Source: Gekko japonicus (Eukaryota). From it: a stretch of DNA of 55,333 nt. The notes beneath the pieces were generated by a model. It saw only the letters and a program-made list of their open reading frames with translations, made no database searches and was not told the origin of the DNA. Shown piece after piece: positions 4,548-50,846 of this stretch (position 1 is the first letter of the stretch; each line of letters opens with the position of its first letter). A program made the translations under genes and the position numbers. The DNA lies in assembly GCF_001447785.1 (NCBI RefSeq), contig NW_015173690.1, forward strand, positions 905,080 to 960,412. Reading direction: 5' to 3'.

Positions 4548-5849
4548 TTAGGATACATCTTCCCACCACTTTCTTTGCATTTGCTGCCTGAAGGAGTTCC
4601 CTGCAAACTGGTTGCTTGCCTTTTCTCGTCCACCTGTTTTGTCAGACACCCTCATTTTCTTCACCGTCTCAAACTGATGATTTGAATAAGAGGCAGGGTC
4701 TACAAAGCCAGAATGTTTCCTTCTTGGAACAAACTGCAAAGCTTTCATCCAATCCCCAGTGTCTTTCAAACTCATTAAGATTTGCATCATTTGGTCTAGA
4801 GTAAGGTTTTTGGCACCTTCCTCCCACTGCAAGTATTTGTCCAAAGGAAGCCGTGCTGTTGCCAGTTTCAGCCGTTTTGCCTGGGCGAGAGAGACTCCTT
4901 TCTGTATTGACTTGTCAACTAGGGATCCAATTATATAGATTTTATCATGCTCAAACTTTTCCATTATGTTAGGAGAATCAGCAGTTAAGTAGACAAGCTG
5001 ATCTCGTGGGAAGACTTCAACATGACTCTGTTCTGTCACTGTCACAAACAACTTATCCCATGCTTCTCCATAGCGTTTGAGAAACACTTTATGATAAGGA
5101 CCATCCATGTTGAGATTACAGTAATGCAAATGAAATGGGTCTACAGCTCTACGATTGACCCCTTCAGCTTCCATCATCTGTTTCACTGCATTTTCCATTT
5201 CTCTGTGTGACATGCTGTTTTCATAGGCCATATCGAACACCAGAGGCTGACCAAAGAGCATAGACTGAGCAGCCCGCCAGTTGAATATAGCATCCCCTGA
5301 CTTGGACCAAAACATCATCAAAAATGTATTCTTTACCTCACCATCATTATTTTCATTAGCTTTTTGTATCTCTTCCTCCCTTATTTGCTTTTTTTTTTCA
5401 CGCTTTTCTTTCTCGGCTCTCTTTTTACCTTCCTTTATAGCCAGGAATTTTAAATACTTGCTTTTTGAAGCCTTACTAGGATATTCCATTAAGGTTTTGA
5501 ATTCTTCTTCACTGATATGTTCTGGAACAGCTCTACCCAGCAATCTCCACAACTCAATCAATTCTCTAGTAGCTGCTAAATTGGAGTCGTCATCATTCTC
5601 TGATGTTTTCTCACTGATTTCTTCTTGTGAAACAGATCGCACAACACGTTTCCATCCATCCAAATCTAATTTTTCAGTGCTGGCTGACGAGGAATCCTTA
5701 CTCAACCAAGGAGACAAAACAAATGTTCTGCAAGTAATTACTTTGCAAGGCTTTATAAAAAATGACCCCCTTTTTATCCCATCTTGTAGAGCTAAAGGGA
5801 AGACAAGTCTTCTAACAACATTAAACAGATGCTTGTTGGAAATGTTCAT
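4548..5849 (-). CDS. TRMT10C: tRNA methyltransferase 10 homolog C (mitochondrial RNase P protein 1), single coding exon, 433 aa
   Basis: Long ORF with Trm10 SPOUT motifs (FGQPLVFDM, LVYLTADSP, IYIIGSLVDK, ATARLPLDKYLQW, NLTLDQMMQIL, FVPRRK). The first ATG is at 5849, just after a splice acceptor (exon begins at 5877). The track's start at 5870 is a TTG. Confidence 0.97.
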   Translation of the reverse strand: MNISNKHLFNVVRRLVFPLALQDGIKRGSFFIKPCKVITCRTFVLSPWLSKDSSSASTEKLDLDGWKRVVRSVSQEEISEKTSENDDDSNLAATRELIELWRLLGRAVPEHISEEEFKTLMEYPSKASKSKYLKFLAIKEGKKRAEKEKREKKKQIREEEIQKANENNDGEVKNTFLMMFWSKSGDAIFNWRAAQSMLFGQPLVFDMAYENSMSHREMENAVKQMMEAEGVNRRAVDPFHLHYCNLNMDGPYHKVFLKRYGEAWDKLFVTVTEQSHVEVFPRDQLVYLTADSPNIMEKFEHDKIYIIGSLVDKSIQKGVSLAQAKRLKLATARLPLDKYLQWEEGAKNLTLDQMMQILMSLKDTGDWMKALQFVPRRKHSGFVDPASYSNHQFETVKKMRVSDKTGGREKASNQFAGNSFRQQMQRKWWEDVS

Positions 5850-11299: not shown

Positions 11300-11790
11300 A
11301 CCGTAATACTCACCTACAGTAACTGAATCCACGCGCTTCCTCACGCCACACTTGCCCAGTCCGTTACCAATCGCCTTCCCGCCGGAAGCGAGAGCAACAC
11401 TCTCATCGGAAGTTACGACTCGGCACGACGGCTCCGCCAACGGACAAGTTCCGCCTTGATCGGGGTAACTTTTGAGAGCGAAGGGAATCGCTTCCACTGA
11501 TTGGAGAGCTACTAAGCCAATCACTAAGTGCTAGAACAACCTACTAAGCGGGTGCTGAGGGAAGGTTTTGCGATCGTTCCCTTCCTGCGGGCTTCTGGGG
11601 CTTGTGCGCATGCGTCGTGGGTGTTAGTTTTATCGTTGGCTTCGGAGAGCTCTGTAGGAAGGGTGAATGTTGCTTTCAGGCTGAGTCGTCATGAGTTTTC
11701 TATTGCCCAAACTAAGCAGGAAAAAGGAAGTGGACGAGGCTATCAAGACCGTGGCCGAGAAAGTCCTGGTGCTTCGCTTTGGCAGAGATG
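11300..11790. promoter_or_regulatory. CpG-island bidirectional promoter TRMT10C/TXNL4B
   Basis: CpG-dense against a CpG-poor background. ETS/GABP CGGAAG sites at about 11382 and 11406, CCAAT boxes at about 11500 and 11517, and an NRF1-like TGCGCATGCG at 11605-11614. Confidence 0.8.
11314..11420 (-). other. TRMT10C: TRMT10C non-coding first exon (5' boundary approximate)
   Basis: Strong donor TAG|GTGAGT on the minus strand (GT at 11313-11312) at the edge of the CpG island. It pairs with the acceptor at 5879-5878. Confidence 0.65.
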
Positions 11791-11822
11791 AGGATCTTGT
11801 CTGCTTGCAACTGGATGATATT
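11691..11822 (+). CDS. TXNL4B: Thioredoxin-like 4B (Dim2), coding exon 1
   Basis: Translates MSFLLPKLSRKKEVDEAIKTVAEKVLVLRFGRDEDLVCLQLDDI, followed by a GTGAGC donor. Matches the Dim2 N-terminus. Confidence 0.95.
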
Positions 11823-12239
11823 GTGAGCAGGTGTTTGGGTCTGTAGATCGAGCACTGGGGTGTTTTGCATGTTATTCGTATTTATTTGTCATGGTGTACT
11901 GGATTAAGCATTTCCCGGGAATAATTTTCTACCACAGTTAAAATAAAAATATTAAAACGTCAAGTGAAGCCCTTACTTTCTCCGCTCCTCAAAAGGAGTT
12001 TCTGTGTACCTCCCTCTGTGGTCGTTTACGGCTCCTTAAAATAAATATTCTTTATCCATAATTTCGTAGGACTTTCAAGGAAGAGTTTTCTTGGACTATT
12101 TTATTGATTCTATTTTATGGATTTATCTGCAGGTACAGGAAAATATTGAATTCTAAATTGCTTTGGACGTTATTTAAACAATCACTTTAAGAGTATTTGT
12201 ACTGATGTAAGCTGCCTTCAAAGCAGGGAAAAGGTGAGA

Positions 12240-12455
12240 TGGTGGTGGAAAGTGCTGTCAAGTCACTGCTGACTTATGGCGACCCCACAGAGTTTTCAGG
12301 GCAAGAGACGTTCAGCGGTGGTTTGCCATTGCCTGCCTCTGTGTCATGAGCCTAGCATTCCTTGGAGGTCTCCTATTCAAATACTAGCCAGGGCTGCTCC
12401 TGCTTAGCTTCTGAGATCAGATGAGATCAGGCTAGCCTGGCCTACACAGGTTAAG
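12240..12455 (-). mobile_element. 5S rRNA-derived SINE
   Basis: Reverse complement of the family at 44095 and 48997. Contains 5S-like GATCTCAGAAGCTAAGCAGG. Confidence 0.75.
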
Positions 12456-13486
12456 GCAGAGGTGGGATACAGACTTTTAAATACAGTGGTGTAAGCATGT
12501 ACACACTTAAGAGTAAGTCGTATTGACCTCAATGGGATATATTTACAAGTCAATAGATATAAGATTGCAGTGTGTGTGTGTCTAAGTACATGCCCACAGT
12601 AATACATTCCTATTTCCATTAGTATTGGCCAACAACTTCTATGGTGGAATAAACTCCTTATTAGCATATAGCAGAACAAATGGTGAAAGCTACAATTCTA
12701 CACATTTGTTTGGGAGCTGGCCAATTCAAGCCAGAGGGACATAGTACTATGTAAACATGCTTAGGCTTCTACTGAAAGTGTGCTGTGTGACTAGAGATGT
12801 AAAATTTCCGGAAATTTTGAAGCTTGGAAAAAAACCCGGGTTTTTTCCGTTTTTTTTTCGGGGAAAAACGGAAATTTTCGGGAAAATGGAAAAAAATGCT
12901 ACATTAGCATTTATTTTGTCTTTTCTAGATTGAAAGTCATTCTGTTACTTTAGGAACATAAAATATGACTATGGACATTTTTACTTGGCATGAAATTATC
13001 ACAACTAGCATATTAAAAATATAGTGTATCCAAACAATTGTTACAAACAGAATACCCATCCACATGCAAAAACAAACCTGAAACCTTTTTATTTTCTTCT
13101 GACAATAGCACCTCCTAAAGAAAGAAATGCATCTTGTTCTTGCATTGGAGAGTTCAGTTTGTAACCTAGGACTTGCTTGTCCTCAGTGCACAGAAATTAG
13201 ATCAATCTGATGTCATATATATATATTTTAGAAATTATTTGGAAAATATTTGAACACCTTAAAAGATTTTATTCATCATGTTAAAATAAAACGTTCCATA
13301 ATCAATTTCTTTTCTTTTCTTTTCTTTTTTCAATGTTTCCAATTTTTATTAAATGAGTGAAACAGTCACATAAATGTGTAATACCCCAAACAATTACCAT
13401 CTCAGCTTTAATTATGTAGTTTGACAATACCAAGCGACACTGCCATTAGCCTCATGTATTCAGATAACATCATTTCTTCATGCCTT

Positions 13487-13750
13487 GTTTGGTGTAGTGG
13501 TTAAGAGCAGCGGACTCTAATCTGGAGAACAGGGTTTGATTCCCCACTTCTCCACATGTAGCCAGGTGGGTGACCTTGGGTCAGTCACAGTTCTCTCAGC
13601 TGTTCTCTCAAGAGCAGTTCTCGCAGAGCTCTCTCAGCCCCACCTACCTCACAAGGTATCTGTTATGGGGAGAGGAAGGGAAGGAGATTGTAAGCCGCTC
13701 TGCAACTCTGAGTGAAGGGTGGGGTATAAATCCAACTCTTTTTCTTCTTC
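13487..13750 (+). mobile_element. tRNA-derived SINE (Squam3-like)
   Basis: Same family as the 8748 copy. Confidence 0.88.
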
Positions 13751-13886
13751 ATAAGACACAGTTGTATTGCACCTTCAGTTTTCATCTTACTTTCAACAGT
13801 GAACTAAAAATTGTTGTAGTGATTTAAGACTCCATTTCTTATCCTCTCATATAAGACCTAATATCTTTCCCTCTGAATTTCTACAG

Positions 13887-14038
13887 CTCGCAAAAACAGC
13901 TCATGACTTAAGTAAAATGGCTACAATTTACTTGGTAGACGTAAACAAGGTGCCAGTATACACCCAGTACTTTGACATCATTTATATTCCATCAACAGTC
14001 TTCTTTTTCAATGGACAGCACATGAAAGTGGATTATGG
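13887..14038 (+). CDS. TXNL4B: TXNL4B coding exon 2
   Basis: Acceptor ctacag, then LAKTAHDLSKMATIYLVDVNKVPVYTQYFDIIYIPSTVFFFNGQHMKVDYG, then donor gtaagt. 152 nt, phase-consistent. Confidence 0.95.
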
Positions 14039-15037
14039 GTAAGTTGCTTTGCATACGTTTATCTCACCTACTGACAACCCCACTTTATATCAAAGTCATT
14101 TATGAAGTTTCCAAGCTGCATCAACACGTAGAAGAATAGTGTTCAAACTGGGAGAGATGTGATTTAGTATAAGGCTAATATTTGTCTGTATTCAAAATAG
14201 TTCAATCCATAACTTGACTAAATAAAAAGTAATTCTGGAAGAGCAGCTATATACATGGAGCAGCCCCCCCCAAAAAAGTAAAAGTAACAAATGAAGGCAT
14301 TAGAGTAATTCCTTACGAAGAAATTAACACATTTGTGTTTTCTTTGGTTTAGGAGAGGGAAAGCTGGGAGGCATGCCAGAGATTTATGAAATTATGCCTA
14401 CAGTAAAGACATTTTTCTCATTATATAACACTAGAGCTTGGGGTCATCCACTAAAATTGATAAGGAAGTAGATTCAGGACTGACAAAAGAGAATGCTTTG
14501 CATAAAACAACATTCATATTAAATTTACTACCATTAATTATGACCACTGACTTTAAAAGGGGATTAGACAAATTCTAGGATGTTAGGTCTCTTAATGGCT
14601 ATTGGCCCTGATTGCAAAAAAGAACCTCTAAATTCAGAAGCAATATATTTGTGGATAACCATTGTGTTATGTGCTTTCTAGAAGCATCTGGCTGGAAACT
14701 ATCTTAGGAATGTCCTGATACCTTAAAAGACTGAAAAATTACTGATTGAACTGGTGGAGTACACTGGCTAAGAGAATGAAGTGTGACCTGGGAAGTTTTA
14801 TTTCTGCCAATAATTCACTAAGTGGCCTTAGGCAAGTTGCTCACACCAGCCCCAGCAAAATGAAAATAATACTAACTAAACTTACAGGGCTATTATAAAG
14901 GGATTAAAACATAAGCATGTGTTTGAAGTACTTTGAAGGGCACAATATAATTCGTCACACTTCAAATAATAAACGTTTCAGAATGTAAATTTTGTAGAGT
15001 TGTAATCTGCTGCCACTTGCCTTTCTTTCCTCTGTAG

Positions 15038-15203
15038 ATCTCCAGATCATACTAAATTCATTGGAAGTTTCAAAACAAAACAAGACTTCATAGATCTGAT
15101 TGAAGTGATTTACCGTGGAGCAATGTGTGGAAAACTCATTGTCCAAAGTCCAATTGATCCTAAGAATATTCTGAAATATGACCTCCTCTACCAGGACATT
15201 TAA
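15038..15203 (+). CDS. TXNL4B: TXNL4B coding exon 3 (terminal)
   Basis: Acceptor ctgtag, then [54 protein letters not shown]. Total CDS is 450 nt (149 aa). AATAAA at 15453-15458. Confidence 0.95.
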
Positions 15204-16644
15204 ATGACCCTATGGAGATGAACAAATTTTGGGATGTGAACTTCAGAAGTCTGCTTAGCCCAAACCTTCTTCAAATGTGTAACAACGTTTGAGATCAGAG
15301 GAATTCAGACTTATCCTCAGAATCATATTGGTCACTATTGGAAGACGGATATTCTGTCATGAGTTAACAGGAACAGCTATTCTCACTAAATTAGGTTACA
15401 TGATTTATTCCTAATCTATTAAAGTAAAAGAACCTCTTATACGGAGGTTCTAAATAAATATGTCAAGGCTACTTCTACATAGTAATCTAATGTTTAAATG
15501 TTGCTAATTCTTTAAAATTAAACTAGTTCTATTAACTGGTGTGATTTTCTTAGCAATCAAATGAGCATCACCATGAACAAAACTAATCTTCAGAAATGTA
15601 AGACATTCTGGTGTTGCTTATATTAAAATGGATAGTAGGTTCTCTGCTAAAGAATGGTGATAGAAGCTTATTGTTTATGGACTTAGGTTGGCTTCTTACA
15701 GACTCAATAGTGTTTGGATTGTTGTTCAGTTCTGCATATCTTTAATTCAGGTGTTTTTAAGTGCAGTGCTGCAATAGGGAAACCTGAGTAAGGCTAAACC
15801 TAACTTCAGACTAGGTATTTTGCACTTATTATTTGCATCATTTGTGCCCCACCCTTCTCCCTAAGTGGGAACCCAAAGCAGTGTACATTGTACTGCTCTC
15901 CTCCATTTAATCTTCATCACAACCCTGTGAGGTAGGTTGGGCTGAGTGTGTGACTGGCCTAAGGTCACCCAGCATGCTGCCATAGCAAATTCAGGATTAA
16001 AACCTAGATTTTCCAGATCATAGTGTGAAACTCTGGCATCACACTGGATCCTATGTACTAAACTATCCCTTCATCTACATCTATTAACAGTGCCATACAA
16101 AGCAGAGTTACACAGCCACTAGGCTTAAAAGGGTACAGTTCTACTTAGGATGGCACAGTAAGTGGGTTAGTTTTTCACTAGCTCAGGGAAGGTCATTCTG
16201 CCTCCCCCTTCAAAGGCTGTAACAAGGACTGTGGGAGCTACATGGATAAAGGTCACATGAGGCAGGGCTGTAATGAGAAGGGCAGTTGGTTGAGATTGCC
16301 CCTGCCTCCTGTTGTGGCAACAGACATCTGGTAGGATGCAATCTAGGGGGTTTCTAAAACAGGTTCACACCAATATTTTTCAAAGAAAACTCTGCCATAA
16401 ACTCTGTTTATTTTATGATACTGTAAAACTAAGGAACAGCTGCTACATTCCAAAAGACACAAGTTTCCATTAAATAAAATGTAACTATAATTCAGAATAA
16501 GACTTTACAGAATATTTTCATGATTATTAACTCTTCTTCATGTCTAAATAACATTTTGTGTGTAATGTTACACAGGTGAGCTGCAGCAGCTATAAGGCAA
16601 TATGCCACTTTTACTAATGACAGGAGTATGAGCAATATGTGAGT

Positions 16645-17661
16645 TTAAGTTTTTTTCATAACTCTTCTACTCCTTGTTGCAATAGGAGAACGAATAACGT
16701 GTGCTTTAGTGCTGATTTTCAGTTCATTCTTAAGATATTTGAAAATGGACTGTAGACTAGAGGAAGGAGCAAAACCACGCTTTTCAGTTCCTGTAGAGAC
16801 TGTAGGACAATCTGTTTTCATGGAGTGGCCTACTGCTTTATCTAGAAGTTTATTATTTGATATCCATTTACGGCAATGCCTCTGGATCCATTCCTGCACT
16901 TGGCAATTACCTTGTGTCTGGTGCATTGTGTGGTGAGTAGAGTCAACAAGAGCAACAGCATATACCTTGTTCATAACCTCAGCAGTTCTCTGCATGAGCA
17001 AGTTAATGAAAACCAATCCTCCATAGCCATGAGCAATGAAAGCCACCTTCCCAGCTGTACTCTTTGAAATGAAGTGGTCCCAAACATACGTCATATGCTC
17101 TTCAGGGCTACTGTTGTGTCTTTTGGAAATTACATGTGATGACGTTAAAACACAAGAAGATTTTTCATCTGTCTTCAGAGCAAGGAAATTGTCATTGGGA
17201 TTTAGCACAATCACTTCCCAACTGCACTGTAGTGCCATTGTAATGAATGGTATCTGAGTACCATGTTGGAGCCCTTCATGAATTGTGGCCTTTTGATCCC
17301 ACTGACCAGCACGAAAGACTCCTCGATCTTGAAGAAGAACAACTAGAGTCGTGCAGTTCCTTAATACATTCTCACTCATGAAAATGAAACTCTTAGGCTC
17401 ACTGTCTAGAGCATCTATTGGGATGTAAATTTTTTGCAATTTGCAAACCTGTTCCAAAATTTCATAAACATACTGGGTAATTAAGTGTCCAAGAACTTCA
17501 TAACGTTCATGATTATTGTTACGTGAATTGCTATAATTAAAAATAAAAGGTTCATTGGTATCTACATGCCTAAGTTCACCATTTTTATTAAAGTCATAGT
17601 TCAGTTTTTCTGGGCACTTGGAACCATATATTAGTTTTCTGAAGCTCAGATCCTCAATCAT
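16645..17661 (-). CDS. FAM172B: FAM172B / ARB2B, Arb2-domain alpha/beta-hydrolase-fold paralogue of FAM172A, intronless CDS
   Basis: FAM172 motifs (YDFNKNGELRH, RYEVLG, SFIFMSE, RAGQW, GTQIPFI, VIVLNPNDN, SSPEEH..YVWDHFI, AHGYGG). Acceptor tttgtag| with the exon starting at 17670, ATG at 17661. Position between SENP7 and TRMT10C matches human FAM172BP. Minus-strand AATAAA at 16412-16407. Confidence 0.92.
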   Translation of the reverse strand: MIEDLSFRKLIYGSKCPEKLNYDFNKNGELRHVDTNEPFIFNYSNSRNNNHERYEVLGHLITQYVYEILEQVCKLQKIYIPIDALDSEPKSFIFMSENVLRNCTTLVVLLQDRGVFRAGQWDQKATIHEGLQHGTQIPFITMALQCSWEVIVLNPNDNFLALKTDEKSSCVLTSSHVISKRHNSSPEEHMTYVWDHFISKSTAGKVAFIAHGYGGLVFINLLMQRTAEVMNKVYAVALVDSTHHTMHQTQGNCQVQEWIQRHCRKWISNNKLLDKAVGHSMKTDCPTVSTGTEKRGFAPSSSLQSIFKYLKNELKISTKAHVIRSPIATRSRRVMKKT

Positions 17662-18863
17662 TTTCAACCACTACAAATAAAATAGATGGAGAGAGGCTAT
17701 GTCATAAAGGCATACTTTTTCAGGGAAATATTTTCAAGTTCTTTCAACATCAAGAATATGGTTGACTGTCAAGACCTGATTTTTCATTAGATATTGACTC
17801 AAATCTTAGTTTTAGTAAGAGAAATAACAATTCTCAGCATCCTCCACATCACCCCCTCATCAGGGCATGACAGCTTACAAGATCTAATTAAATTAGACAT
17901 GTTTACACCTCACTGATTTCAGTGTGCAAACTGGGCATACTTCTAATTGAAAACAATGTGATATACACTGTGATCTTAAACAGACCCTCCAGAAAGGGTT
18001 AGTGTTTAGTTAACATTTATAGTTATTGATTTACAGTAGTGCTTAGAGTGTTGTACTAGGACCTGGAAGACCCAGATTCAGAATCCCACTCTGCCATGGA
18101 AGCTGGCTAGATAATCTGGGGCCAATCACACGTTCTCAGTCTAACCTACCTCACAGCATTGGCACGAGGATAAAATAGAGGAGAACAACATAACCTGCTA
18201 TGTATAAAATTATAAAATATATGTAAATATATACTTACATTCATGCTTCCTGAAAGTAATCGCAAAGGCTTCTAGGCACTTCTGTTATTCTTCAGAGGTC
18301 CGTCTAAACAGATGCAAGCATTATGATGGGCTACAGATCAATGTCTCCCTTTGTCTCTTCTAATAAATGTGTAATTATAGTTCCAATTCCAAGAGTCTGA
18401 AGCAATTTATAAATAGACCATTGTTCAATTATTTCTTTAAAATCAGATGTAAAATATGTACTATTTGCATATACTGAGAAAAATGTAAGCCATTTGCCAC
18501 AAATCAGTGCTTCTTAAGCTTGTTTACTAAATACCACAATTCTGGTTTCTTTATGTTTGAATACCACCACGTGGCATAACCACCATGTTGGCAGAACTCT
18601 TAAAAGACTCCCATATTATATCTACTAGTGGTTTTTTTTTTAGTACGAACATAAGAAAAGCCATATTAGATCAGGTCAATAGCCCATCTAGTCCAACACA
18701 CTGTGTCACACAGTGACCAAAACCCAAGGGCCATCAGGTCCACCAGCAGGGCCAGAACTCCAGAAGCCCCCTTACTGTTGCCCCCCCCAAGCACCAAGAA
18801 TACAGAGCATCACTGGCCCAGACATAGTGTTCCATCTATAATTTGTGGCCAATAGCCACTGAT

Positions 18864-19060
18864 GCACCTTTGAGACTAGCAAGATTTGGGGGGTATAAGG
18901 TTTTGAAAGAAAGCTCCCTTTGTTGGATATTGCATATCCAATGAAGGAAGCTTTGATTCTCAAAACCTTATACCCCCCAAATCTTGCTAGTCTCAAAGGT
19001 GCTACTGGACTGGAATCTAGCTGTTCTACTGCAGACCAAATGGCTATCTTCTGAAACTAC
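18864..19060. mobile_element. Penelope-like fragment in inverted arrangement
   Basis: 43-bp perfect inverted repeat (18864-18906 / 18960-19002) and the ...AAAGGTGCTACTGGACT pLTR-like motif. Confidence 0.7.
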
Positions 19061-19364
19061 CTCCTAAGTGTGTCTCATCAAGGACAATGCTCATTTTCTG
19101 GCACCCCAATCCTCAGAAGCAGATGCTGCATTTCCCCTTGCACTTGGGGCCAAAAGGTTACCTCTCAAAACACTGTTCTGTCATTATTCTATAATAAATG
19201 TATAATTTTAATATTTTTTTTTTTTTTAATGTTGTAACCTGCCCGGAGTCTCAATAGGAAAAGAAAATGATAAATGAAGTAAAATTAAAAAATCATCAGA
19301 TGCAGTAATCCAGCAGGCACGGGTCCTTGAGCATGACAAAAATGAGTTCTGTATGATGCCAGCT

Positions 19365-19529
19365 ATGGAGCTGCGGTGGCTCAAGTGGTTAAGACGCTGA
19401 ACTGCAGGCTGTGGAAGGTCAGTAGTTCAGTGGTTCAAGACCCGGGTGCCGCAAGACAGGGTGAGCTCCTGTCTCTAGTTCCAGCTCCTGCCAACCTAGC
19501 AGTTCGAAAGCAAGAAATTGCAAGTAGAT
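19365..19529 (+). mobile_element. Sauria SINE 5' half only, with 13-bp TSD
   Basis: TSD TATGATGCCAGCT at 19352-19364 and 19530-19542. Confidence 0.85.
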
Positions 19530-19879
19530 TATGATGCCAGCTGCGGTTCTGTCGAAATTGCATTTAAAGGGTTTCAGTGCGAAGCTAGACATTGGTTTTT
19601 AGCTTACTGTCAAACTTACTTTTCGTCTAATAACAACTTTTAAGGACTTCCTATTTCAGATAGTTGTGAGATATGGATCACCTCTTTGAGCTACAGCTGC
19701 TGATACAGGTAAACCTAAGTCACAGCCTTCTCATTTATTAGCGTTTTAACTCGCAATTTGCTTCACTGGGTTCGAGTCCACAAGGGCTGGGACAAATAAT
19801 AATAAAATAAATCTGCCATGGCGATTCGAATGCCCCAGGCATGACACACTGAAGAAAGCCCCACCAACTCAGAAAGAAC

Positions 19880-20710
19880 TCGCTAATGCCAAGTCCACCG
19901 CCTACGGCGTATAGAAGCAGCCTTTGGCTCCGTTTTAGGGGGGGAAGACAATTTTGCATGCTACGCCGAGGGGGCGGTGTGAGAATAACGGAAGTAAATA
20001 GCGGCGAAAGGGGCGTGTAGTTGAAGGAATCTGGAGACTAACGCAGCAAGCCAGCGTCCGAGATGCCGAGAACTGTTTCGTCGTAGAGGCCCGAGAAAAC
20101 CCACTTTGACGCGCAGAAAGTGAGGCAGAGGCAGAGCCCCAACGGTGCTCGACAGCTGGGCCCGGAGAGAACCTAGAAAGGGGAAGGCGAGGGGAAAGTG
20201 GCCTTCGGCAACAAAACCGCTTACCGCGGCTCTTCCGGTCTCCTCCAGAGGGGCGGCGCCTGTTTCGGAAATGGCGGGTGTCCCTGCTCAGGGAGAGGCC
20301 GGCCGCTGCACTCGGAGGGCGCAACAAAGGCGAGCGGCGGGGGAGGATTTGCGTGGACTTTTCTGGCCAGGTGAGAGAGACGAAGGGGGGCGGGAGGCGT
20401 CGTGGCCTCGTTGCCGTCTGCCGTAGAAAGGCCCTCCCTCCCTCCCTCCGCGGGGTTGTTGGCTCATTGTAGGAGGGCGAGCAAAGAAAAAAGGCTTCGA
20501 TACAACTGGTCGTCGCGCGGGAGGCTCGTCTGTCCCTTCGTTGACAGGTGTTCGCGAGCGAGACGAGATAAGCAGTCCGAGCTTGTTTACTCGGAAGTAA
20601 GCCCTGCTAGGAGTCGATTGCGGCATTACTGTCAGATCAACGGGAGAAACAGACGATATATGGTTTTATTTTCTGAAGTCTTTTTTTAGTGCTGCCTCGC
20701 ACTGTACGGT
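19880..20710. promoter_or_regulatory. CpG-island bidirectional promoter FAM172B/SENP7
   Basis: High CpG and GC content. ETS motifs (ACGGAAGT about 19988, CTTCCGG about 20232, TCGGAAGT about 20591) and GC boxes. Contains SENP7 exon 1. Confidence 0.8.
20271..20370 (+). CDS. SENP7: SUMO-specific protease 7, coding exon 1
   Basis: ATG in good Kozak context (gaaATGG), MAGVPAQGEAG...GLFWP, then donor CAG|GTGAGA. Phase 1 fits the next exon. Confidence 0.7.
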
Positions 20711-21267
20711 GTTAAAGGCTCTTCGATTTTGTGTTTTAATCCGGGCTAATCAGCTCCTGTGCTCATTTGTTATTTTTGTGTCCTACAAGAAACATCACAG
20801 TGATAGGGGGGGAAAGCAGTCCAGGGGTACTCTTGACACAAATAGGATTCATTGCAGTATAAGCTTTAGTGAGTCAGTACTCACTTCATCACATTTAGTT
20901 TGCCTTGTTTCTTCAGGTTCAGGGTATTCATTGATGTATTTTTCTGTCAGAATTTCTGTCACCTTAAGATTTGTCTGATAGACTGGAATCTAGCAAGTGG
21001 AGCATACATTATGACCGGCTTCATCCTAGGAAAAACTGTTTAATTTCTGCAGGGTGACAAATGCTTAATGTGTTAGAGGTCCCAATAAAAGAAAGTTTGA
21101 AACCTTTGAGTGGATCCTAAGAAGCTATATTTTGTGATTACACACAGCTTCTGTTATTCCCTTCTCCAGTTGATTATTGATCTGTGCCACATTTGTATTC
21201 TTCATTAAAACAACATCCCCCTCCCAAAAGCTGCTGTACCCTACTTCTTACAGTTGTTAGAAAGAAT

Positions 21268-21533
21268 TTGTTGTTGTTCAGTTGCACAGAAGTCCGACTC
21301 TTCGTGACCCCATGGACCACATCACGCCTGGCCTTCCTGTCCTCCGGAGTTTGCTCAACTTCATGTTCATTTCATCGATAACACTGTCTAACCATCTCAT
21401 CCTTTGCTGTCCCCTTCTTCTTTGAGCTTCAGCTTCAGTATCCAGCCTTCCAGGGAACAGTCAGGGTTGATTTCCTTTAGGATTGACTAATTTGATCTCC
21501 TTGCAGTCCAAGGGACTCTCAAGAGTCTTCTCC
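21268..21533 (-). mobile_element. Bov-B (RTE) LINE 3' fragment
   Basis: Characteristic GATCTCCTTGCAGTCCAAGGGACTCTCAAGAGTCTTCTCCA and GACCCCATGGAC, with a (CAA)n tail. Confidence 0.85.
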
Positions 21534-22339
21534 ATATCTGTATTTTCTTCATATCTGTATTTTCAAAAAGAAGTGTGCATTTAGAAGGTGCAGAAAAATC
21601 TATGCTTTACTATCCTAATTATAACTGTGATAAAGTTGTTTATTAGCTCAAAATGCTTACTAACCTATATTAAACAGTATTGTTTATGCATATGTATTTT
21701 GTGACATAGCTTCAGATCACAGGCTATTAGATTGTCAGATTCAGGTTCAGATAGCACCTGTGCAGTGATCTTGGGCTACTCACGTTCTCGACCTAACCTA
21801 CCCCACAGGGTGTCATGAAAATAAATAAAACGATGAAGGGAAACAAGTCTGCCACTCTTAGCACCTTGAAGAGAAGGGAGGATGAAGATATATTAGAGTG
21901 ATAAATTCATTCACAGAGAATAGGCATTAGGTTATTAATTGATGGATTTCATAGTGGAACCCCTTATACAGGGACAGCTAAAACTCATTATAGAAACATT
22001 CTTTACATAGCTTAACACTGATAACAAATTCTTGTGTGTAGGGGGAGGTAATCAGTCGAATTTAGGTACTGGAAACAATCAGAATGTTCAAGGAGAAGGC
22101 AGACGTCTTTTTTTGGAGAGCACAGTTGTCAGCCCAAAGACTCCACATGTTTGTTGAATATAAGAGAGCATATAGTATTCTGTTCCTGTAGGATGTTTTT
22201 TGAGTGGGAGGGGGTGTCCCTCCCAGCATGCAAGATCAGCTTTCTCATTCTTTTGGTAAGCCTATCTGGATACACATGGATCTCTGCTCTATGTTTATCC
22301 AATTCTCTCTTGAAGCTGTCTACCTTCTCTATCATATGC

Positions 22340-23142
22340 GTAATTTTTGTAAACCTCTATCATGTCACCCCTCAGTTGTTGTTTCTCCAAGCTAAAGAGC
22401 CCTAACCTTATTAACCTTTCTTCACAGGGAAGGTGTTGCATCCATCATTTTAGTTGCCCTTTTTTGTACCTTTTCCAATGCTATAATATCTTTTTTGAGG
22501 TATGGTGACCAGAACTGTACACAGTACTCCAAATGAGGTCGCACCATTGATTTATATAGGGGGATTATGATACTGTCTGATTTGTTTTCAGTCCCCTTCC
22601 AAATAATCCTCAGCATAGCATTTGCCTTTTTTATTGCAATCTCACACTGAGTTAACATCTTCAGTGAGTTCTCTACCAAAACTCTCTCTTTCCTGGTCAA
22701 TTACTGCCAGTTCGGACCCCATCAACGTATATTTATAGTTAAGATTTTTGGCTCCAGTGTGCATTACTTTGCACTTGCCTACGTTGAACTTCATTTGCCA
22801 CATTGCCACCCACTCTCCCAGCCTTGACAAATTCCTCTGGAGCGCCTCACAGTCCTCTGGTGTTCACAACTTAGTATCTGCAAACTTAGCCACTTCACTG
22901 CTTACTCTCAGCTCCAAATCATTAATGCGCAAGTTACAAAAACCACCAGACCTAATACCAAGCCCCACAGTACCCCACTGCTTACCACCTTCCACTGTGA
23001 AAATCGCACATTTATACTCACTCTCTGTTTCCTGGTAATCAAACAGTTTTTAATCCACAAGAGGACTTGTCTCATGACTGCTAAGTTAGGAGACTTTGAT
23101 GTGGAACTTTATCAAAAGGTTTCTGTAAGTCTAAGTAAACAT
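22340..23142 (-). mobile_element. CR1 LINE fragment (RT C-terminal region)
   Basis: Translates WQMKFNVGKCKVMH and LYKSMVRPHLEYCVQFWSP, frameshifted. Confidence 0.92.
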
Positions 23143-23279
23143 TGACATCAGTGGGTTTCAAAGGGCATAGTGCTGTATAGGATTGTACTGTTAACAGGCT
23201 TTTCTGAGGGGTGGACCTTCTCCATCAGGTACTTTTATAAGGTTGTAGCCCAAAGTGGACTCTGGCTCAGAAAAGCTTA

Positions 23280-23640
23280 AAAGGTAAGGTAAAGGTTCCC
23301 TTGCTCGAAATCCAGTCGAGTCCGACTCTAGGGTTGTGGTGCTCATCTCCGTTTCAAAGCCGAAGAGCCAGCGCTGTCCGAAGACGTTTCTGTGGTCATG
23401 TGGCCGGCATGACTAAACACCAAGGTGCACCGAACGCTGTTACCTTCCCACCGAAGTGGTACCTATTTATCTACTTGCAATTTCTTGCTTTCGAACTACT
23501 AGGTTGGCAGGAGCTGGAACTAGAGACGGGAGCTCACTCCGTCATGCGGCACACTCGGGTCTCGAACTGCTGAACTGCTGAACTACTGACCTTCCACAGC
23601 CTGCAGTTCAGCATCTTAACCACTTGAGCCACCGCAACTC
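23280..23640 (-). mobile_element. Sauria SINE, full length with 14-bp TSD
   Basis: TSD CTCAGAAAAGCTTA at 23266-23279 and 23641-23654. Confidence 0.9.
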
Positions 23641-25307
23641 CTCAGAAAAGCTTACATAAAAATAAATGTGCTATAAATAAAAATAAATGTCTTAGTCTTT
23701 TAAAGTTTAGGATGAGGAATAAAAACAGTTTTCAGTTAATATTAATCGTGCTTTGGATTAACCTACGTACTTAAGAAAAAAAATGAAATATATAGAGTTG
23801 TAGTAAAATGTGTTCACCACATGTGCTGGCCTACCCTTTAGAGTATAAATTGTAGCAGTGATATGGACAGTCTCTGAGGTATGTGGATTCTAACTCATGA
23901 ATGGCTTTAGATATAAGACCTTGAATTAAGGCCAAAAGCTAATTGGCAGCCAGAAGAGTTGCTACAAAAGGAGTTCCTAACCTGTACTAGACTGATAGAT
24001 TCATTCACAGAGAACAAGCATTAGGTTATTAATTGTTGGAACTCACAATGTAATGTTACAGACAAGGGCAGCATATGTCTTGTAAAAACTCAATGTAGGA
24101 ACATTTTTTACATAGCTTAGCAGTGATAACAAAAATTGGGGGGGGGGATCAGGGGTTTTACTACCCCATCTACCACAGGAAGATCCACTTTTCCCAAAGC
24201 ATTGAGATTACATACCGGCATCTTGTGTGGATTTCATCCTTTTAAATTTTATCCATTTAGAACAGCTACTCCAAGATGGGTAGTAATGAAATATTGGTAA
24301 CGTCCAACTCCAGAATCTGGAAGTCCCTCCTTCATATGAGAAAACATTAGTCCCCTTCATTCCACATGCATCAGCAGTGATGGTCCAATAAAAAGAATGG
24401 TACCACATAAGAGCCATCTCCAACACACAAACCAGTTACTGAAGTTGTATAAATCTCTGCATCGAGAGCAGCTGAAGTACAATCCTGTACAGAGTCATTT
24501 TATTATATGTCCATTGAAACTAGTAAGTGTAAACTGAACTAACTGCCTAGATTATAAAAACTTAATAGATCCAAAACTGGTGTTAACCCAAAATGCAGAC
24601 TTTGGTGATAATTAAGATTAATCCTAACCATAACTCAGGAAATTTAAGCAAGAAAGGAGAGAAGGAACAGACAAGCCTGAATAGAAAAAAGGAGGAAGGT
24701 GAAAAGCCTATGAGGTATCCTTGGGATCCTAACTATAGTTAGAAGATTTGATGGCATTATCTGCACTCTACCTGTATACAACCTGTCAGTCTGTATCCAT
24801 GACAGAAAAATAATATGCGAATTACAGATATGTGGGACTTTTTCTTTCTTTCTTTCTTTCTTTGCCAGATACTACCAAAGAAAGAAAAAAAGGAAAGAAA
24901 AAGTTTGCTGTTATTCTAATCTCTGCTCTCCTATAAAGTTAAATTGGTTGGTATTCTAATCTGCATCTCTATTTAGTTTAGAACTTTCCAAACAAAGAAT
25001 TATATAGACCTGCTTATATGATCAGACAGTGTCCTTGAAATAGCAAAAAGTAATGGGAGCCTAGTTAGCATGCCTTCCGTATTTATTGGCAACCTTATGA
25101 ACAAGAGCAGTTATCTTAGAGCAATGTGTAGATTTAGGAAGCAATGGTCAGAGAAGGTTTCCTGTTCACAAGGAATAGGAATATCTTTAGCATCTGAGAA
25201 ATGCTTATTATCGTCTAAGGATACTGTGAAACTTAATTACCTGCTTTTGAAAATGCTAATTATAGCATGATGCAAAATGCTGCTATTTTCTGTCTTGTGT
25301 CTTTCAG

Positions 25308-35033: not shown

Positions 35034-37052
35034 CAGGATGTTTTCTAGAGATGTGCAAGCAGAAACATAAACAGACTTAGAGTTCCATTTGCACAAGATC
35101 TTGTGCAATACCCAGCATTTTACTCCCTATATGCTAAAGTGTCCAGAAATTGGTTGCATAAATCTTGTGTGAGTGGAAACTCAAATGAGGATACAATAAG
35201 TTTGACTTAGCACAAACACCACAATCTTTCTTGGATTTTTGTTTGTGCAAGAGCGCTAGACCAATGGAAATTTTGCACTAGATCCAACGCAATGTCAGCA
35301 TAACACAATATTCTTTGAGGTAATGTTGATCTGGCTGTTGGTATGCCGCATGCTCAGTGCACTGGTACAGCAGGTCTCAGATCAGGCTATTTATGTTGAT
35401 TTTCCTACCTTCTGCTTTTTAAGGATGCACTTCACTTTTAAGTATGTCCTTCTCTTAATTCTTGTAGCTACATAAGTATCCTTATTTATGTAATGTATTT
35501 GGATTAATATTTAAAAGATGAGCTAGTGAAATGCCCATCATGATGACAGATGAGAGTTGATGGGGGGAAAAAGAGGATTTTGCAAAGACCATTTGGGAAG
35601 TACTGGGAAGTACTGGGTGGTTACTTGGAATGATGGAATCTTAGGTTTTGAAGAATATGACTTCAGTGGAGAGGTTCAGTTTACTTGTGTCACATGTAAA
35701 CACTGTAAATAAAAGATTAGATTTAAACATACTGGTTTATTTAGGTTTATCCAGGACAGCGTTGCTAGAGTGTGTCCTATTTGCATTATTTTCATTTTAC
35801 TTTCACATTAGGTTTCAAGCAGTATTGTTTGATCAAACAGTTGCTGTTGTTGCCAACATTTGAAGAGAAACACATGAATTCTTACGTATGAAGTTAATGC
35901 TGCAGTTCTGTGGGCACTGGGATTAGCTTTGTAACGTGATTCTTGGAAGATCAGAATGCTGGTAGTTATACTCTATAAAAGAACTAGTTTTTCATGTTGG
36001 TAACACTGATAAAAGGAATCCTAGTGAATTTGAAGCTCTCAAAACTTTAAATGTTACACATATTAATACATGCATGTAATATTTTGACAGAAAACTAGTT
36101 GTGTCATATATGATAGACCTCGATACATAATGCATACTTTTTTTTCAGCCAAAGTTTCTATGTGCAGATTTTAATCTGGCCATCTCTTTGTGGCCTTATT
36201 TACATGTTGCAGTTGTATTAAAAGCATGATTACCTCAAAGGAAATCTCATTATGTTCTATGAAGCATTCATATATTTCCCTGAACACTTGTTATAGGCCA
36301 GGATAATACTCTCTGGGATACAGTGCTAAAAATGTTAGGGATACTCCTCTGCCACTGTTGAACAACTCAGGTCTGCAATTGGACTTCGAAACTGCCAAAA
36401 AGGAAGGCTATCTGTGTACTACTGAATTCACATAGTGTTTCAGGATAGACTGAGTTGGACTCAAAGAAAGGAACTATAGGTTTTGCCGAACTTCTAGCCG
36501 AATTGTCTGTTTCCTTCCAGGACTGAGCCCTGATTTCTCTGGCTTCCTCTGGATCATTCCATGATTCAAGGAGACTTAAGATATAAGCAGTGCTCCGCTA
36601 TTTATTGCATATTCCAACACTGTTGTTCATAATACTTCAGTGGAGATGTGCAGTTACTTTTGTCACACATAAGCACTGTAATTAAATTATTAGATACTAT
36701 ATTGTATTTATCAGGTCCCCAAACAAAAATATCAGATGTAATTTGCTAGCATCAGAATAAAGAGTTTTTAATGCATTGCTCATGCATTAAATACACAGTA
36801 GATAAAAAGCCATCTCAGGGAAGAATATATTTAAAAAGACTAACTGTAGAATGAAAAGTAGACACAGCTAAGGTAATCCACCTTAATTTCCACGTCTTCA
36901 GAAAGATTCTTTACAAATCCTTGGCTGAGATCTTTGAAGTGAAAATATAACTTTGAGATTATTAAGTTCTCTAAAGAAAGTTTGTTGGATTCATGTATCT
37001 TATTTAGATTTCATTACTTTACTTATCAACACTATTATTATATGTATGGCAG

Positions 37053-37250
37053 GCAACCCAAAGTTATGTTGACGAATGTCCTGAAGACGGAAGTAGGAAG
37101 AAAATACATAAAGACACAGCTTATAACTGATGCTAATTTATCTCATGCTGTCAAGTTGCAATCAGCTCGGCAAACCTCATCATCTGTTGACAGTATAGAG
37201 ATATGGCAAATATTAAGTTCACCTCACCAAAGCCTTTTTATATCTAAAAG
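37053..37250 (+). CDS. SENP7: SENP7 exon 5 (first PxVxL HP1-box repeat)
   Basis: QPKVMLTNVLKTEVGRKYIKT...QSLFISK(R), 198 nt, symmetric phase 2. Compare human QLKVMLTNVLWTDLGRKF. Confidence 0.93.
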
Positions 37251-39358
37251 GTATGTTTGGTTAACTCAATCTCAGACATAATACATCTTTACCTATTTAC
37301 TATTGAAAAATGCATGTAATTGTTTTCCATGAGCAAGTATTTTTTGTCGTCTTGTGGTCATAAGCCATTTTTCACATACAGCACATCTTTTTGAGAGATC
37401 TTAACCGTCTTGTTGAATCACTTAGTTTGAGAGGGAATTTGTCTACTCATATCTCTTGTAAAACTTCATGTTAGTTTCTAGCAAGTTTCAGGAATACTAG
37501 AGGGAATATTTCTGCCTATTTGAAATATTAGATGATGAGTTCTTGTCATAAATATCTTTTTAAAAGTATATTTACACCTACAAGAGAGATCTGTTCATAA
37601 TGTTATCGCTTTTTCCCAGAAAATAAATAGTTATACTATTTCATGTAGGGTTTATTATTCTTGGAACTTTTTTACATCCACAGTCCTTAATTTTGCAGAG
37701 AAGACAGAGTTGTGTTGCTACTAGAAACTTACCCATTCCTCTGTGAATTGTTTGGTTTTCCCATAGGACTTTTTATACACTTCTCAACGGAACAGCGTAT
37801 TTCGTAATGAAAACATCCTTTGAGATAGATAGATATATATATACTGTACAGCAGGAAAATGCAGAACATTAAGAAACTGACTGATAGACTACAAAGAAGG
37901 ATTAGAGAACAGCTAGAAGATGCTTGTGTTCAAACAGCAAAATATAAATTAGCTCCAGTAACACTGGTTTTTAAACTGTGGCCCATGGCCTACCAATAGT
38001 ATGTGATGTACCTACTGATGAAAATACAAAGTACCAATTTACAACTACAAATATTGGAGGGCTTTTCTAGAATGAACAATAATGAACTTTGAATTTAAAT
38101 TCAAATTATGCTACAGTTTATTATAGCCATTCTGAACTCTGTGGGCAAATGTAAGGATGAATGAAGTGGCCCTGAGTAGTATAGTCTCCATTGGAGACAG
38201 CCCTTCTGGAACAGTGCAAGTCTCCCCTTTCTAAAGGCAGCCATGATGGTCAGGAAGTTTTGGGAACAAGGTGGGATCTGGCATAGAAGGCTGCTGCTCG
38301 GGGGGGGGGTGTCACCTGAAACTGTTCTGTTGCATGAGGGGGAAGGAAATTTCAGCTGATCCACTGTCTTACTGCAGTCCCTTGCACTGCATACCAAACA
38401 ATTCTTGAAGGGCCCCAAACCTTAAAAAAAACTTTTTTGAGGGGGGCTGCTCTGGAAACGGGGTTGGCATCAAAGGCCTCTTTCATTTACTTGCTCAGTT
38501 TGTGGATCCAGCTCATGGAATATATACAGACGTAGCATAGTTTACCTGCTGTTTTACAAAGCATCCCCTTTCCCTTTATTATCTATGGTTTCACTGGAGA
38601 GAACACTGAATTGCATTTTAATTTAGAAGCCTTTCAGAAATTTTCCATGTGGCTGTGGCCTGTGAAAATATAGTAGTCTTCAAAGAATGGAAGAGTAAAC
38701 CCTACACACCTCAAAGTGTAGGAATTGCTGACATAAGAAATCACCGTGGGAAGGCATTGCCTTACTTGTTAAGCACAAGTTCATAGTTCATTGTATCAGT
38801 CTTACATACTCAGATAAGAAATATTTTGCTGCTATTTTTTTTTGTTTTTAATCAAATACCATGGCTGCTGCATTTTTTTTTTTTGGTGTTTCTATTCTCA
38901 AATAAAAACAGATATATCTGTCAGAGTGGCTTCTGGAAGAGATGACACAATCACTGTTCAAATTTTTTGTTGCTGACTTTTATATATAAAGGCTGTCAAC
39001 TTTAGGTAGATAAATAGCAAGATGTGCTCTTTTGAGCTTTGTGAAAACTACATTCATAGTTAATTTCCTTAGTTTATGTGCTACATTTTTACTCATGCTG
39101 GCAGTTTTTCATGATATTTAATGGCATCATCTAAAATGTTGAAATTCAAGCCCAACAATAAAGTTTTATTTGGTCTTTCCTTATTCTGTGACCCATCTGT
39201 ACTTTGGGACACTTCACTTGTCTTCCATCTGTTTTCATGAAGTTGGTTTAAGTTATAGTTAGTAAGATTTTGAGATTACCCAAACATTTATGATACATGA
39301 ATTCAACCAAACATTCTTTGTACAAGTTCCAGAGTATTAATTATTGTATGTATGGCAG

Positions 39359-39550
39359 GCAACCCAAAGTTACCTTGACGAATATTCTGAGGACGAAAAC
39401 AGGAAGAAAATACGTGCAAACTCATCTTTTAGCTGATGCTAATCTATCTGATGCTAGCAATTTGCAATCAGATGAAGAGCCCTCCTCATCTGTTGCCAGC
39501 CAATCATGTCAAAAAATAAGTTCTCAACAAAGCTGTATTTTATCAAAAAG
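39359..39550 (+). CDS. SENP7: SENP7 exon 6 (second PxVxL HP1-box repeat)
   Basis: QPKVTLTNILRTKTGRKYVQT...SCILSK(R), 192 nt, symmetric phase 2. Compare human IPRVILTNVLGTELGRKY. Confidence 0.93.
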
Positions 39551-49691: not shown

Positions 49692-50846
49692 CTCATAAGA
49701 ACATAAGAGAACCCAATGTTGGATCAGGCCAATAGCCCATCCAGTCCAACACTCTGTCACACAGTGGCCAAAAATACCAGGTGCCATCAGGAGGTCCACC
49801 AGTGGGGCCAGGACATTAGAAGCCCTCTCACTGTTGTCCTCCCCCCCAAGCACCAAGAAGATAGTGCATCACTTGCCCCAGACTGAGAGTTCCTATCTAT
49901 ACCCTGTGGCTAATAGCCACTGATGGACCTCTGCTCCATATGTTTATATAATTCCCTCTTGAAACCATCCATGCTTGTAGCCGCCACCACCTCCTGTGGT
50001 GGTGAATTCCATGTGTTAATCACTCTTTGGGTGAAGAATACTTCCTTTTATCTGTTCTAACCTGACTGCTCAGCAATTTCATTGAGTGCCCACGAGTTCT
50101 TGTATTCTTGTAAACCTCGATCATGTCACCCCTCAGCCGTCGTTTCTCCAAGCTAAAGAGCCCCAGGCGCTTTAACCTTTCTTCATAGGCAAAGTGTTTC
50201 AACCCTTTTATCATTCTAGTTGCCCTTTTCTGCACTTTTTCCAATGCTCTAATATCCTTTTTGAGGTGTGGTGACCAGAACTGTACACAGTATTCCAAAT
50301 GAGGTTGCAGCATTGATTTATACAGGGGCATTATGATACTGGCTGATTTGTTTTCAGTTCCCTTCCTAATAATCCTGAACATAACGTTGGCCTTTTTTAT
50401 TGCAGTTGTACACTGTCTCGACATTTTCAGTGAGTTATCTACTACTACTCCAAGATCTCTCTCTTAGTCAGTCTCTGCCACTTTGGACCCCATCAACGTG
50501 TATATATAGTTAGGATTTTTGGCTCCAATGTGCATCACTTTGCACTTGGCCACATTGAACCCCATTTCCCATGTTGACGCCAACTTGCCCATCCTCGACA
50601 GATCCCTTTGGAGTGCCTCACAATCCTCCCTGGTTCTTACCACTCTGAACAACTAAGTTCCATCTGCAAATTTAGCCACTTCGCTGCTTACTCCCAACTC
50701 CAAATCATTAATGAACAAGTTAAAAAGCAGTGGACCAAGTACTGATCCCTGTGGTACCCCACTGCTTACCACCCTCCACTGAGAAAATTGCCCATTTATA
50801 CTCACTCTCTGTTTCCTATTAATTAGCCAGTTTTTGATCCACAAAA
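49692..50846 (-). mobile_element. CR1 LINE 3' about 1.15 kb with (TTCTTATG)n tail
   Basis: Translates GVPQGSVLGPLLFNLFINDL...KFAD and PHLEYCVQFWSP. Tail at about 49695-49708. Confidence 0.93.

Follow-up and report, generated by a model that had tools for sequence, protein, structure and literature searches.

The 55,333-nt stretch of Gekko japonicus DNA analyzed here (contig NW_015173690.1 of assembly GCF_001447785.1, positions 905,080 to 960,412; hereafter the window) carries on its minus strand the gecko ortholog of FAM172B, also named ARB2BP, beside SENP7. With moderate confidence, gecko FAM172B is read as an ancient intron-less paralog of FAM172A, transcribed at a low level from the CpG island of SENP7 and encoding a binding protein that is non-catalytic and functionally independent of SENP7. 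A preliminary description, made from the DNA letters and a list of open reading frames (ORFs), had instead proposed that an Argonaute-associated factor and an HP1 regulator could be co-expressed here as a heterochromatin module.

Identity of the FAM172B gene

The ORF list of the window holds a stop-free minus-strand ORF of 338 aa (16645-17661), as the preliminary description had stated. From stop to stop the frame has 341 codons and opens at the AG at 17671-17672; the chance of such a frame, from base composition, is about 3e-11. The ORF matches the Pfam family Arb2 (PF22749) with E 6.8e-59 and 199.8 bits against a curated cut-off of 26.8. The acceptor and polyadenylation motifs described earlier were also found: the AG acceptor at 17670 has a pyrimidine tract of 86%, and the candidate AATAAA (Table 1) is the sole minus-strand AATAAA or ATTAAA from 15912 to the FAM172B stop.

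Annotations of FAM172B/ARB2BP already exist for reptiles, birds, mammals and amphibians, and the 343-aa gecko product itself (P0002) is present in NCBI and UniRef. The nearest named orthologs were those of Heteronotia, Eublepharis and Paroedura, with 85-88% identity among geckos, and the best 120 of 340 matches, which range from geckos to salamanders and from 88 to 50% identity, were all FAM172B/ARB2BP or unnamed relatives. An Atlas search with FAM172B returned Arb2 clusters only, and a PDB sequence search gave no match below E 0.6. Judged by sequence, the gecko gene is a FAM172B/ARB2BP ortholog, ordinary in kind, at 85-87% identity to the named gecko sequences and in one clade with all named members (RefSeq; Swiss-Prot ARB2P_HUMAN, 'putative protein') of an uncharacterized family. 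Compared with other FAM172B proteins, it has a short loop (26 aa) and an Arg at the position of the triad His, with no difference in kind.

Transcript structure and the CpG island shared with SENP7

RNA was mapped from 8 of 22 listed runs, comprising three raw RNA runs of one study and five contig runs (contig runs X1-X16 are presumed to be RNA); contigs and raw libraries were unstranded, and the contig records were filtered. Contigs of X2 and X15 lay off the FAM172B ORF, and 15048-15795 lay outside the coverage of every run.

A single minus-strand GT-AG junction, 20225 to 18303 (CT..AC on the plus strand), was observed in run X21, one of the three raw RNA runs, with three reads of three different starts and a shorter read side of 42 nt. 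The exon in the CpG island had been expected to splice to 17670, but the junction goes to 18303, and a direct 20225-17670 splice was rejected. The 65-nt exon 18303-18239 ends in ATG-AAT before GTAAGT, and joined to 17670 it reproduces P0002 letter for letter; therefore the start codon likely lies on exon 2, and the coding sequence (CDS) likely has 2+341 codons over two exons. Of the earlier claim of a single coding exon, the uninterrupted main exon stands, while the start codon likely lies elsewhere. While the acceptor of exon 2 comes from the RNA junction, its donor would follow from the P0002 match and from squamate N-termini. In the annotation models, 14 of 17 named squamate orthologs begin with M-[NS]-W-[LF], and W-[LF] lies within the first 60 residues in 76/120 FAM172B orthologs after variable sequence, as would be expected of a conserved acceptor at that point. 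The Met at 17661 was rejected as the conserved start, because many mammals and birds have Val, Ile or Thr in place of the in-exon Met.

The first exons of both FAM172B and SENP7 lie in one CpG island (19751-20750), as had been proposed; the CpG observed/expected ratio is 0.27 in the whole window and 0.91-1.10 in the island. The SENP7 ATG at 20271 agrees with the Heteronotia RefSeq N-terminus, gecko SENP7 proteins align exon by exon from this position, and all 24 matches to a query of an internal exon were SENP7. The PF02902 profile search gave no match to the window SENP7, whose exons are short, and its identity comes from protein comparison. Its 20370-25305 junction was present in contigs of three of four runs. 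Since the unstranded contigs of SENP7 exon 1 begin at 20025, 20026 and 20066, exon 1 of FAM172B (at least 20225-20266) likely sits antisense inside SENP7 exon 1. The two opposite-strand starts are less than 1 kb apart in one island, as in a bidirectional pair; the head-to-head arrangement described earlier is thus right as to the opposite-strand neighbor, but the first exons likely overlap rather than diverge. PMC3670739 describes the capture of a promoter by way of new 5' exons as a common route for retro-derived genes, and the shared island is regarded here as ordinary promoter recruitment by a retrogene, with at most a loose co-regulation with SENP7.

Several observations weigh against this transcript model. 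The 18238-17670 junction was absent from all 8 runs examined, and contigs of X1 (15801-17935, with another 910 nt to the left), X16 (16266-18123) and X8 (17511-17969) cross 17670 unspliced. An unspliced leader from 18303 would hold 16 upstream ATGs, and the evidence for sense transcription of FAM172B consists of three reads of one run. The 910 extra nt of the X1 contig span the last exon of TXNL4B (763 nt, the remaining 147 falling in the 152-nt exon 2), a gene overlooked in the preliminary description that is convergent, tail-to-tail with FAM172B and ends 1.4 kb past the FAM172B stop. The TXNL4B 3' untranslated region (UTR) is the simplest source of RNA over the ORF, and the unspliced RNA is probably largely this 3' UTR, antisense to FAM172B, although one contig spanning two genes is no proof of a single transcript.

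Predicted fold and loss of the hydrolase site

The predicted FAM172B model (pLDDT 88) suggests an ARB2 alpha/beta fold, since its best structural matches were Clr3 (5IKK, Z 19.6, root-mean-square deviation 3.3, 214 aligned) and the ARB2 domain of Hda1 (5J8J, Z 18.2), followed by alpha/beta hydrolases. Residues are numbered on the 338-aa ORF. Q111, D112 and G212 were present in 70/70 aligned FAM172B rows, whereas FAM172A and outgroup rows keep H-G before RAGQW, the elbow Ser and the late His (29, 30, 30 and 30 of 30). By motif search, the elbow residue was G in 120/120 FAM172B sequences and S in 72 of the 73 FAM172A rows holding the motif, a count outside which stand 47 FAM172A isoforms without it. 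In the predicted model G212 falls at the E205-211/H213-224 turn, with Gly in place of the nucleophile Ser. The triad acid D240 is kept in 66/70 FAM172B rows, and the triad His column holds R in the gecko, H in 27/70 FAM172B rows and H in 30/30 FAM172A and outgroup rows; with acid and His assigned by conservation rather than by coordinates, the acid-plus-His pair is incomplete in gecko FAM172B. Belanger reportedly described a serine-hydrolase motif in FAM172A in PNAS in 2018.

According to PMC10205598, the chief AGO2-binding residue of FAM172A is E229 (human E228), which lies in a loop with CK2 sites and a nuclear localization signal (NLS), and FAM172A imports AGO2 by means of that NLS. In turtle and duck FAM172A, both of 416 aa, residue 228 is the E of KRERK. 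KRE[RK]K was found in 99/120 FAM172A and 0/120 FAM172B sequences, and the CK2 sites with bipartite NLS, as defined in that paper, were absent from FAM172B. The corresponding loop has 64 aa in FAM172A and 26-50 aa in FAM172B, with 4-5 aa in teleost members; the gecko loop of 26 aa, between NPNDN and SPEEH, is at the short end. The preliminary description's 'Argonaute-associated factor' therefore lacks the AGO2-binding loop in 120/120 FAM172B sequences. The loss of the hydrolase Ser together with the AGO2/NLS loop argues that FAM172B is likely a non-catalytic binding protein of hydrolase fold, that is, a dead enzyme. Its tail has a conserved basic xTR[SG] in 65/70 orthologs, likely a targeting signal.

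In the lamprey homolog (P0341, P0484) the hydrolase Ser is retained, and the loop is long and charged and lacks KRE[RK]K, which suggests that the loop grew before the duplication and then shrank in FAM172B.

Age and origin of FAM172B

In a representative homolog search the best 150 of 1214 matches were taken and 20 of these were looked up by name; among the 20 were FAM172B members from catshark, chimaera, bowfin, milkfish, arowana, elephantfish and catfish. As sharks have FAM172B members, the gene predates the split of bony and cartilaginous fishes. The gene had been described as still functional 'here', as if notably preserved in the gecko; its annotation extends over the tetrapods, and sharks and bony fish have it as well. 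A tree of 47 rows placed 22 FAM172B rows on one side (support 100/100), 11 FAM172A rows on another (100/96) and 14 rows from outside the jawed vertebrates, including one lamprey, Capitella and Nematostella, on a third (94/82). Two catfish gene models fuse B-type sequence to TRMT10C, therefore the FAM172B/TRMT10C adjacency is old; FAM172B with TRMT10C and SENP7 as neighbors was found in the gecko window, and the TRMT10C link in the catfish models as well. The human gene order in the FAM172B/TRMT10C/SENP7 region is presumed.

FAM172A of the same gecko genome lies on a different contig and has 10 coding exons over 371 kb; one of its exons matches a Gekko japonicus protein without a difference. 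Its introns at residues 70, 103, 125, 189, 262, 302, 341 and 370 are all absent (8/8) from the span of the FAM172B ORF, and therefore FAM172B likely arose as a retrocopy in the jawed-vertebrate ancestor. Deletions by exon skipping at FAM172A boundaries were seen in 48/118 FAM172A models and 2/189 FAM172B models, and bowfin FAM172B isoforms differ only at the N-terminus. The earlier wording 'old retrogene' is accordingly sound as to an old (shark to primate), intron-less paralog, with retroposition itself likely, by inference. A poly(A) remnant or target-site duplication would hardly be expected to persist in a copy this old.

Other results do not favor this origin. The approximately unbiased test does not reject a grouping of FAM172B with tetrapod FAM172A (p 0.057), chimaera P0329 leaves the family sequence exactly at the last FAM172A intron, and two bird FAM172B models skip the span of one FAM172A exon. 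The breaks in the chimaera and bird models are probably annotation artefacts; an intron at the level of fishes would weaken the retrocopy reading, and P0329 leaves a later intron loss open.

An unlikely alternative, which would leave the reading of the protein unchanged, is that FAM172B arose early in the vertebrates by duplication of DNA (of the whole genome or of a segment), with later loss of introns through recombination with cDNA. The age of FAM172B fits the timing of the vertebrate genome duplications, and besides the divergence of P0329 at the last FAM172A intron, the catfish models splice out near another. Against it stand the absence of all eight internal introns from the gecko gene, the purely N-terminal differences of the bowfin isoforms and the rarity of A-type skips in FAM172B models; the neighborhoods of SENP7 and FAM172A, which we take not to be paralogous, count in the same direction.

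Constraint and the human ARB2BP entry

In all 15 pairs among six squamates, FAM172B identity (69-83%) was higher than that of SENP7 (59-73%) and lower than that of FAM172A (80-97%). The nine ORF variants in the runs included no stop and no indel, and the flanks had three indels; the ORF variants, six non-synonymous to three synonymous, do not differ from neutral (P 0.29), which lends no support to constraint. By these comparisons gecko FAM172B is intact, in line with the earlier description, and constrained.

One 362-aa sequence (P0266) bears the names of Swiss-Prot ARB2P_HUMAN and of the chimpanzee and bonobo RefSeq entries, and differs from gorilla, orangutan, macaque and marmoset at 3, 6, 14 and 22 positions, respectively. 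With presumed divergence values as yardstick, primate FAM172B divergence is about 1/4 of the neutral expectation. The human locus is labelled a pseudogene, yet the Swiss-Prot entry is full-length; the comparison used this curated protein entry, and such an entry can bridge a lesion. Whether human ARB2BP is a constrained coding gene is, on sequence grounds, an even question.

It is very unlikely that gecko FAM172B is an ORF heading to silence, the RNA over it being essentially TXNL4B 3' UTR. This would agree with the sense junction having three reads only, the unspliced contigs over 17670, the X1 contig reaching TXNL4B and the human pseudogene label, but the gecko branches in the 47-row tree are short (0.06-0.08), identity among geckos is high, and the splice sites and start exon are intact with no disabling variant.

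In a Naja naja model of FAM172B (P0330, P0397) the middle is missing and otherwise fixed sites are changed, which may point to a decaying copy or else to a poor model.

Possible role of FAM172B

In the proposed course of events, a retrocopy of FAM172A in the jawed-vertebrate ancestor would have given an intron-less FAM172B, whose start would then have been captured inside the SENP7 CpG island through new 5' exons. A low or tissue-restricted three-exon mRNA would be translated into a 343-aa dead hydrolase, which would be unable to import AGO2 as FAM172A does and would likely work as an adaptor that binds other molecules, in the way that the ARB2 domain of Hda1 binds histones. A nuclear, chromatin-associated adaptor role, by analogy with the histone-binding ARB2 of Hda1/Clr3, has about the same chance of being right as wrong.

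Quite unlikely is the idea that ARB2BP is a working jawed-vertebrate gene whose dead, loop-less product binds FAM172A by the ARB2 surface and damps the nuclear import of AGO2 that FAM172A drives, the level of ARB2BP being set by the SENP7 exon 1 overlap and the antisense TXNL4B 3' UTR. A complex prediction of FAM172A (turtle, 47-400) with FAM172B (gecko, 1-322) stayed below the mark of 0.34 (ipSAE 0.00 and 0.30); it had no folded controls and is unused as evidence.

The least likely reading, held to be highly improbable, is the heterochromatin module of the preliminary description, in which FAM172B would associate with AGO2, be co-expressed with SENP7 and act on HP1. The FAM172B first exon does lie within the SENP7 island, the ARB2 fold is common to FAM172B and the heterochromatin deacetylase Clr3, SENP7 acts on HP1-alpha by deSUMOylation (passages of PMC7349378) and has two PxVxL motifs in the window, and FAM172A with E229Q still binds AGO2 in vitro, though less strongly (PMC10205598), so a second AGO2 surface could exist. 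However, besides the missing AGO2/NLS loop, reduced to a few residues in teleosts, PxVxL (the ligand motif of the HP1 chromoshadow domain) was not found in gecko FAM172B P0002 and matched once among 70 orthologs. Promoter capture is common for retro-derived genes, as noted above, and a second head-to-head pair in the window, TRMT10C/TXNL4B with a CpG island at 11.0-12.0 kb, is unrelated in function. With both the AGO2 loop and the HP1 motif absent, an AGO2-HP1 module with SENP7 is unlikely, and nothing ties the two products.

Comparison with known systems

FAM172A/ARB2A, a cotranscriptional regulator and AGO2 import adaptor, shares PF22749, the fold and 40-44% aligned identity with FAM172B. 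Only FAM172A has the 10 coding exons, the HG/S/D/H hydrolase residues, the 64-aa CK2-NLS loop with E228, an N-terminal extension and an EEL-type end, whereas FAM172B has none of the introns, Q-D/G for H-G/S, no KRE[RK]K and the basic xTR[SG] tail. Like FAM172B, the ARB2 domains of yeast Hda1 and Clr3 have a non-catalytic hydrolase-like fold; they are C-terminal domains of class II histone deacetylases, with 14-19% identity to FAM172B. The Hda1 ARB2 domain binds histones and is non-catalytic (excerpts of PMC5036196). Dimerization and histone binding are Hda1 features, while FAM172B is known here from sequence and model. FAM172B resembles retrogenes that recruit the CpG-island promoter of a neighbor (sections of PMC3670739) in its intron-less CDS and in two upstream exons that extend to the neighbor's island. 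Unlike them, it is very old, its first exon overlaps the neighbor's exon 1, its start codon likely lies on a new exon, and its ORF is probably overlapped by the 3' UTR of a third gene.

FAM172B-related names appear as gene-list mentions in passages of PMC12491267, PMC10094043 and PMC13116134. In the open-access literature, supplements apart, no account was found of the jawed-vertebrate age of FAM172B, the fixed loss of Ser, the absence of the AGO2 loop or the constrained full-length human entry. The existence of FAM172B, already in databases, is no surprise; the interest lies in an uncharacterized pseudo-enzyme paralog of great age and in a human pseudogene label that may be wrong. If the reading is true, a human coding gene would be mislabelled as a pseudogene, and the FAM172A/FAM172B pair would offer a natural experiment to show which functions of FAM172A (hydrolase site, AGO2 import, ARB2 scaffold) are important in CHARGE-related biology.

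Neighboring genes and repeats

The features of the window are listed in Table 1.

Table 1. Coordinates of FAM172B and surrounding features in the window.
Feature	Position	Strand	Remarks
FAM172B main coding exon	16645-17670	-	341 codons + stop; predicted Arb2/alpha-beta-hydrolase fold
FAM172B exon 2	18239-18303	-	65 nt; likely start ATG 18244; strong GTAAGT donor 18238
FAM172B non-coding exon 1	20225-20266 (minimum extent)	-	GT donor at 20224; likely antisense within SENP7 exon 1
Candidate polyA signal AATAAA	16407-16412	-	about 230 nt past FAM172B stop
CpG island with first exons of SENP7 (+) and FAM172B (-)	19751-20750		GC 0.55-0.63; CpG observed/expected 0.91-1.10
SENP7 exon 1	20025-20370	+	ATG 20271; donor 20371; spliced to 25305
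TXNL4B (Dim2; PF02966)	11691-15203	+	coding exons 11691-11822, 13887-14038, 15038-15203; 149 aa
TRMT10C single-exon ORF	4548-5849	-	window ORF list and Pfam
SINE-like repeat	15874-16046		inverted partner of 18034-18202; score 118, shuffled maximum 37 of 200
SINE-like repeat	18034-18202		FAM172B intron 2; clustered A>G on + in contigs, 4 runs

The inverted pair of SINE-like repeats flanks the FAM172B ORF. The A>G differences, located at 18101-18125 in four runs, weakly hint at edited plus-strand RNA; they were dropped as proof of such editing because the inverted copy has G at three of the four sites, which may instead reflect alleles or misplaced repeat copies. At 18864-19002, in FAM172B intron 1, lies a near-perfect, MITE-like palindrome of 139 nt with 43-nt arms of 100% complementarity and inner arms of 26 nt.

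The TRMT10C CDS has an acceptor about 27 nt before its ATG, and the CpG island at 11.0-12.0 kb holds candidate donors at 11313/11344. Two SENP7 exons, 37051-37266 and 39357-39554 (+), are copies of each other with about 53% identity, and each opens with a PxVxL-type motif. An ORF at 50020-50424 (-) of the same window presumably resembles the C-terminal part of a CR1-type LINE reverse transcriptase.

Elsewhere, an intron-less full-length DIM1-family match at G000:C1834:69776-70171 (-) is a possible retrocopy, and Peptidase_C48 occurs in open frames of 250-420 aa on G000:C12358, C12305, C17332 and others, possibly transposon-borne Ulp1-like genes.

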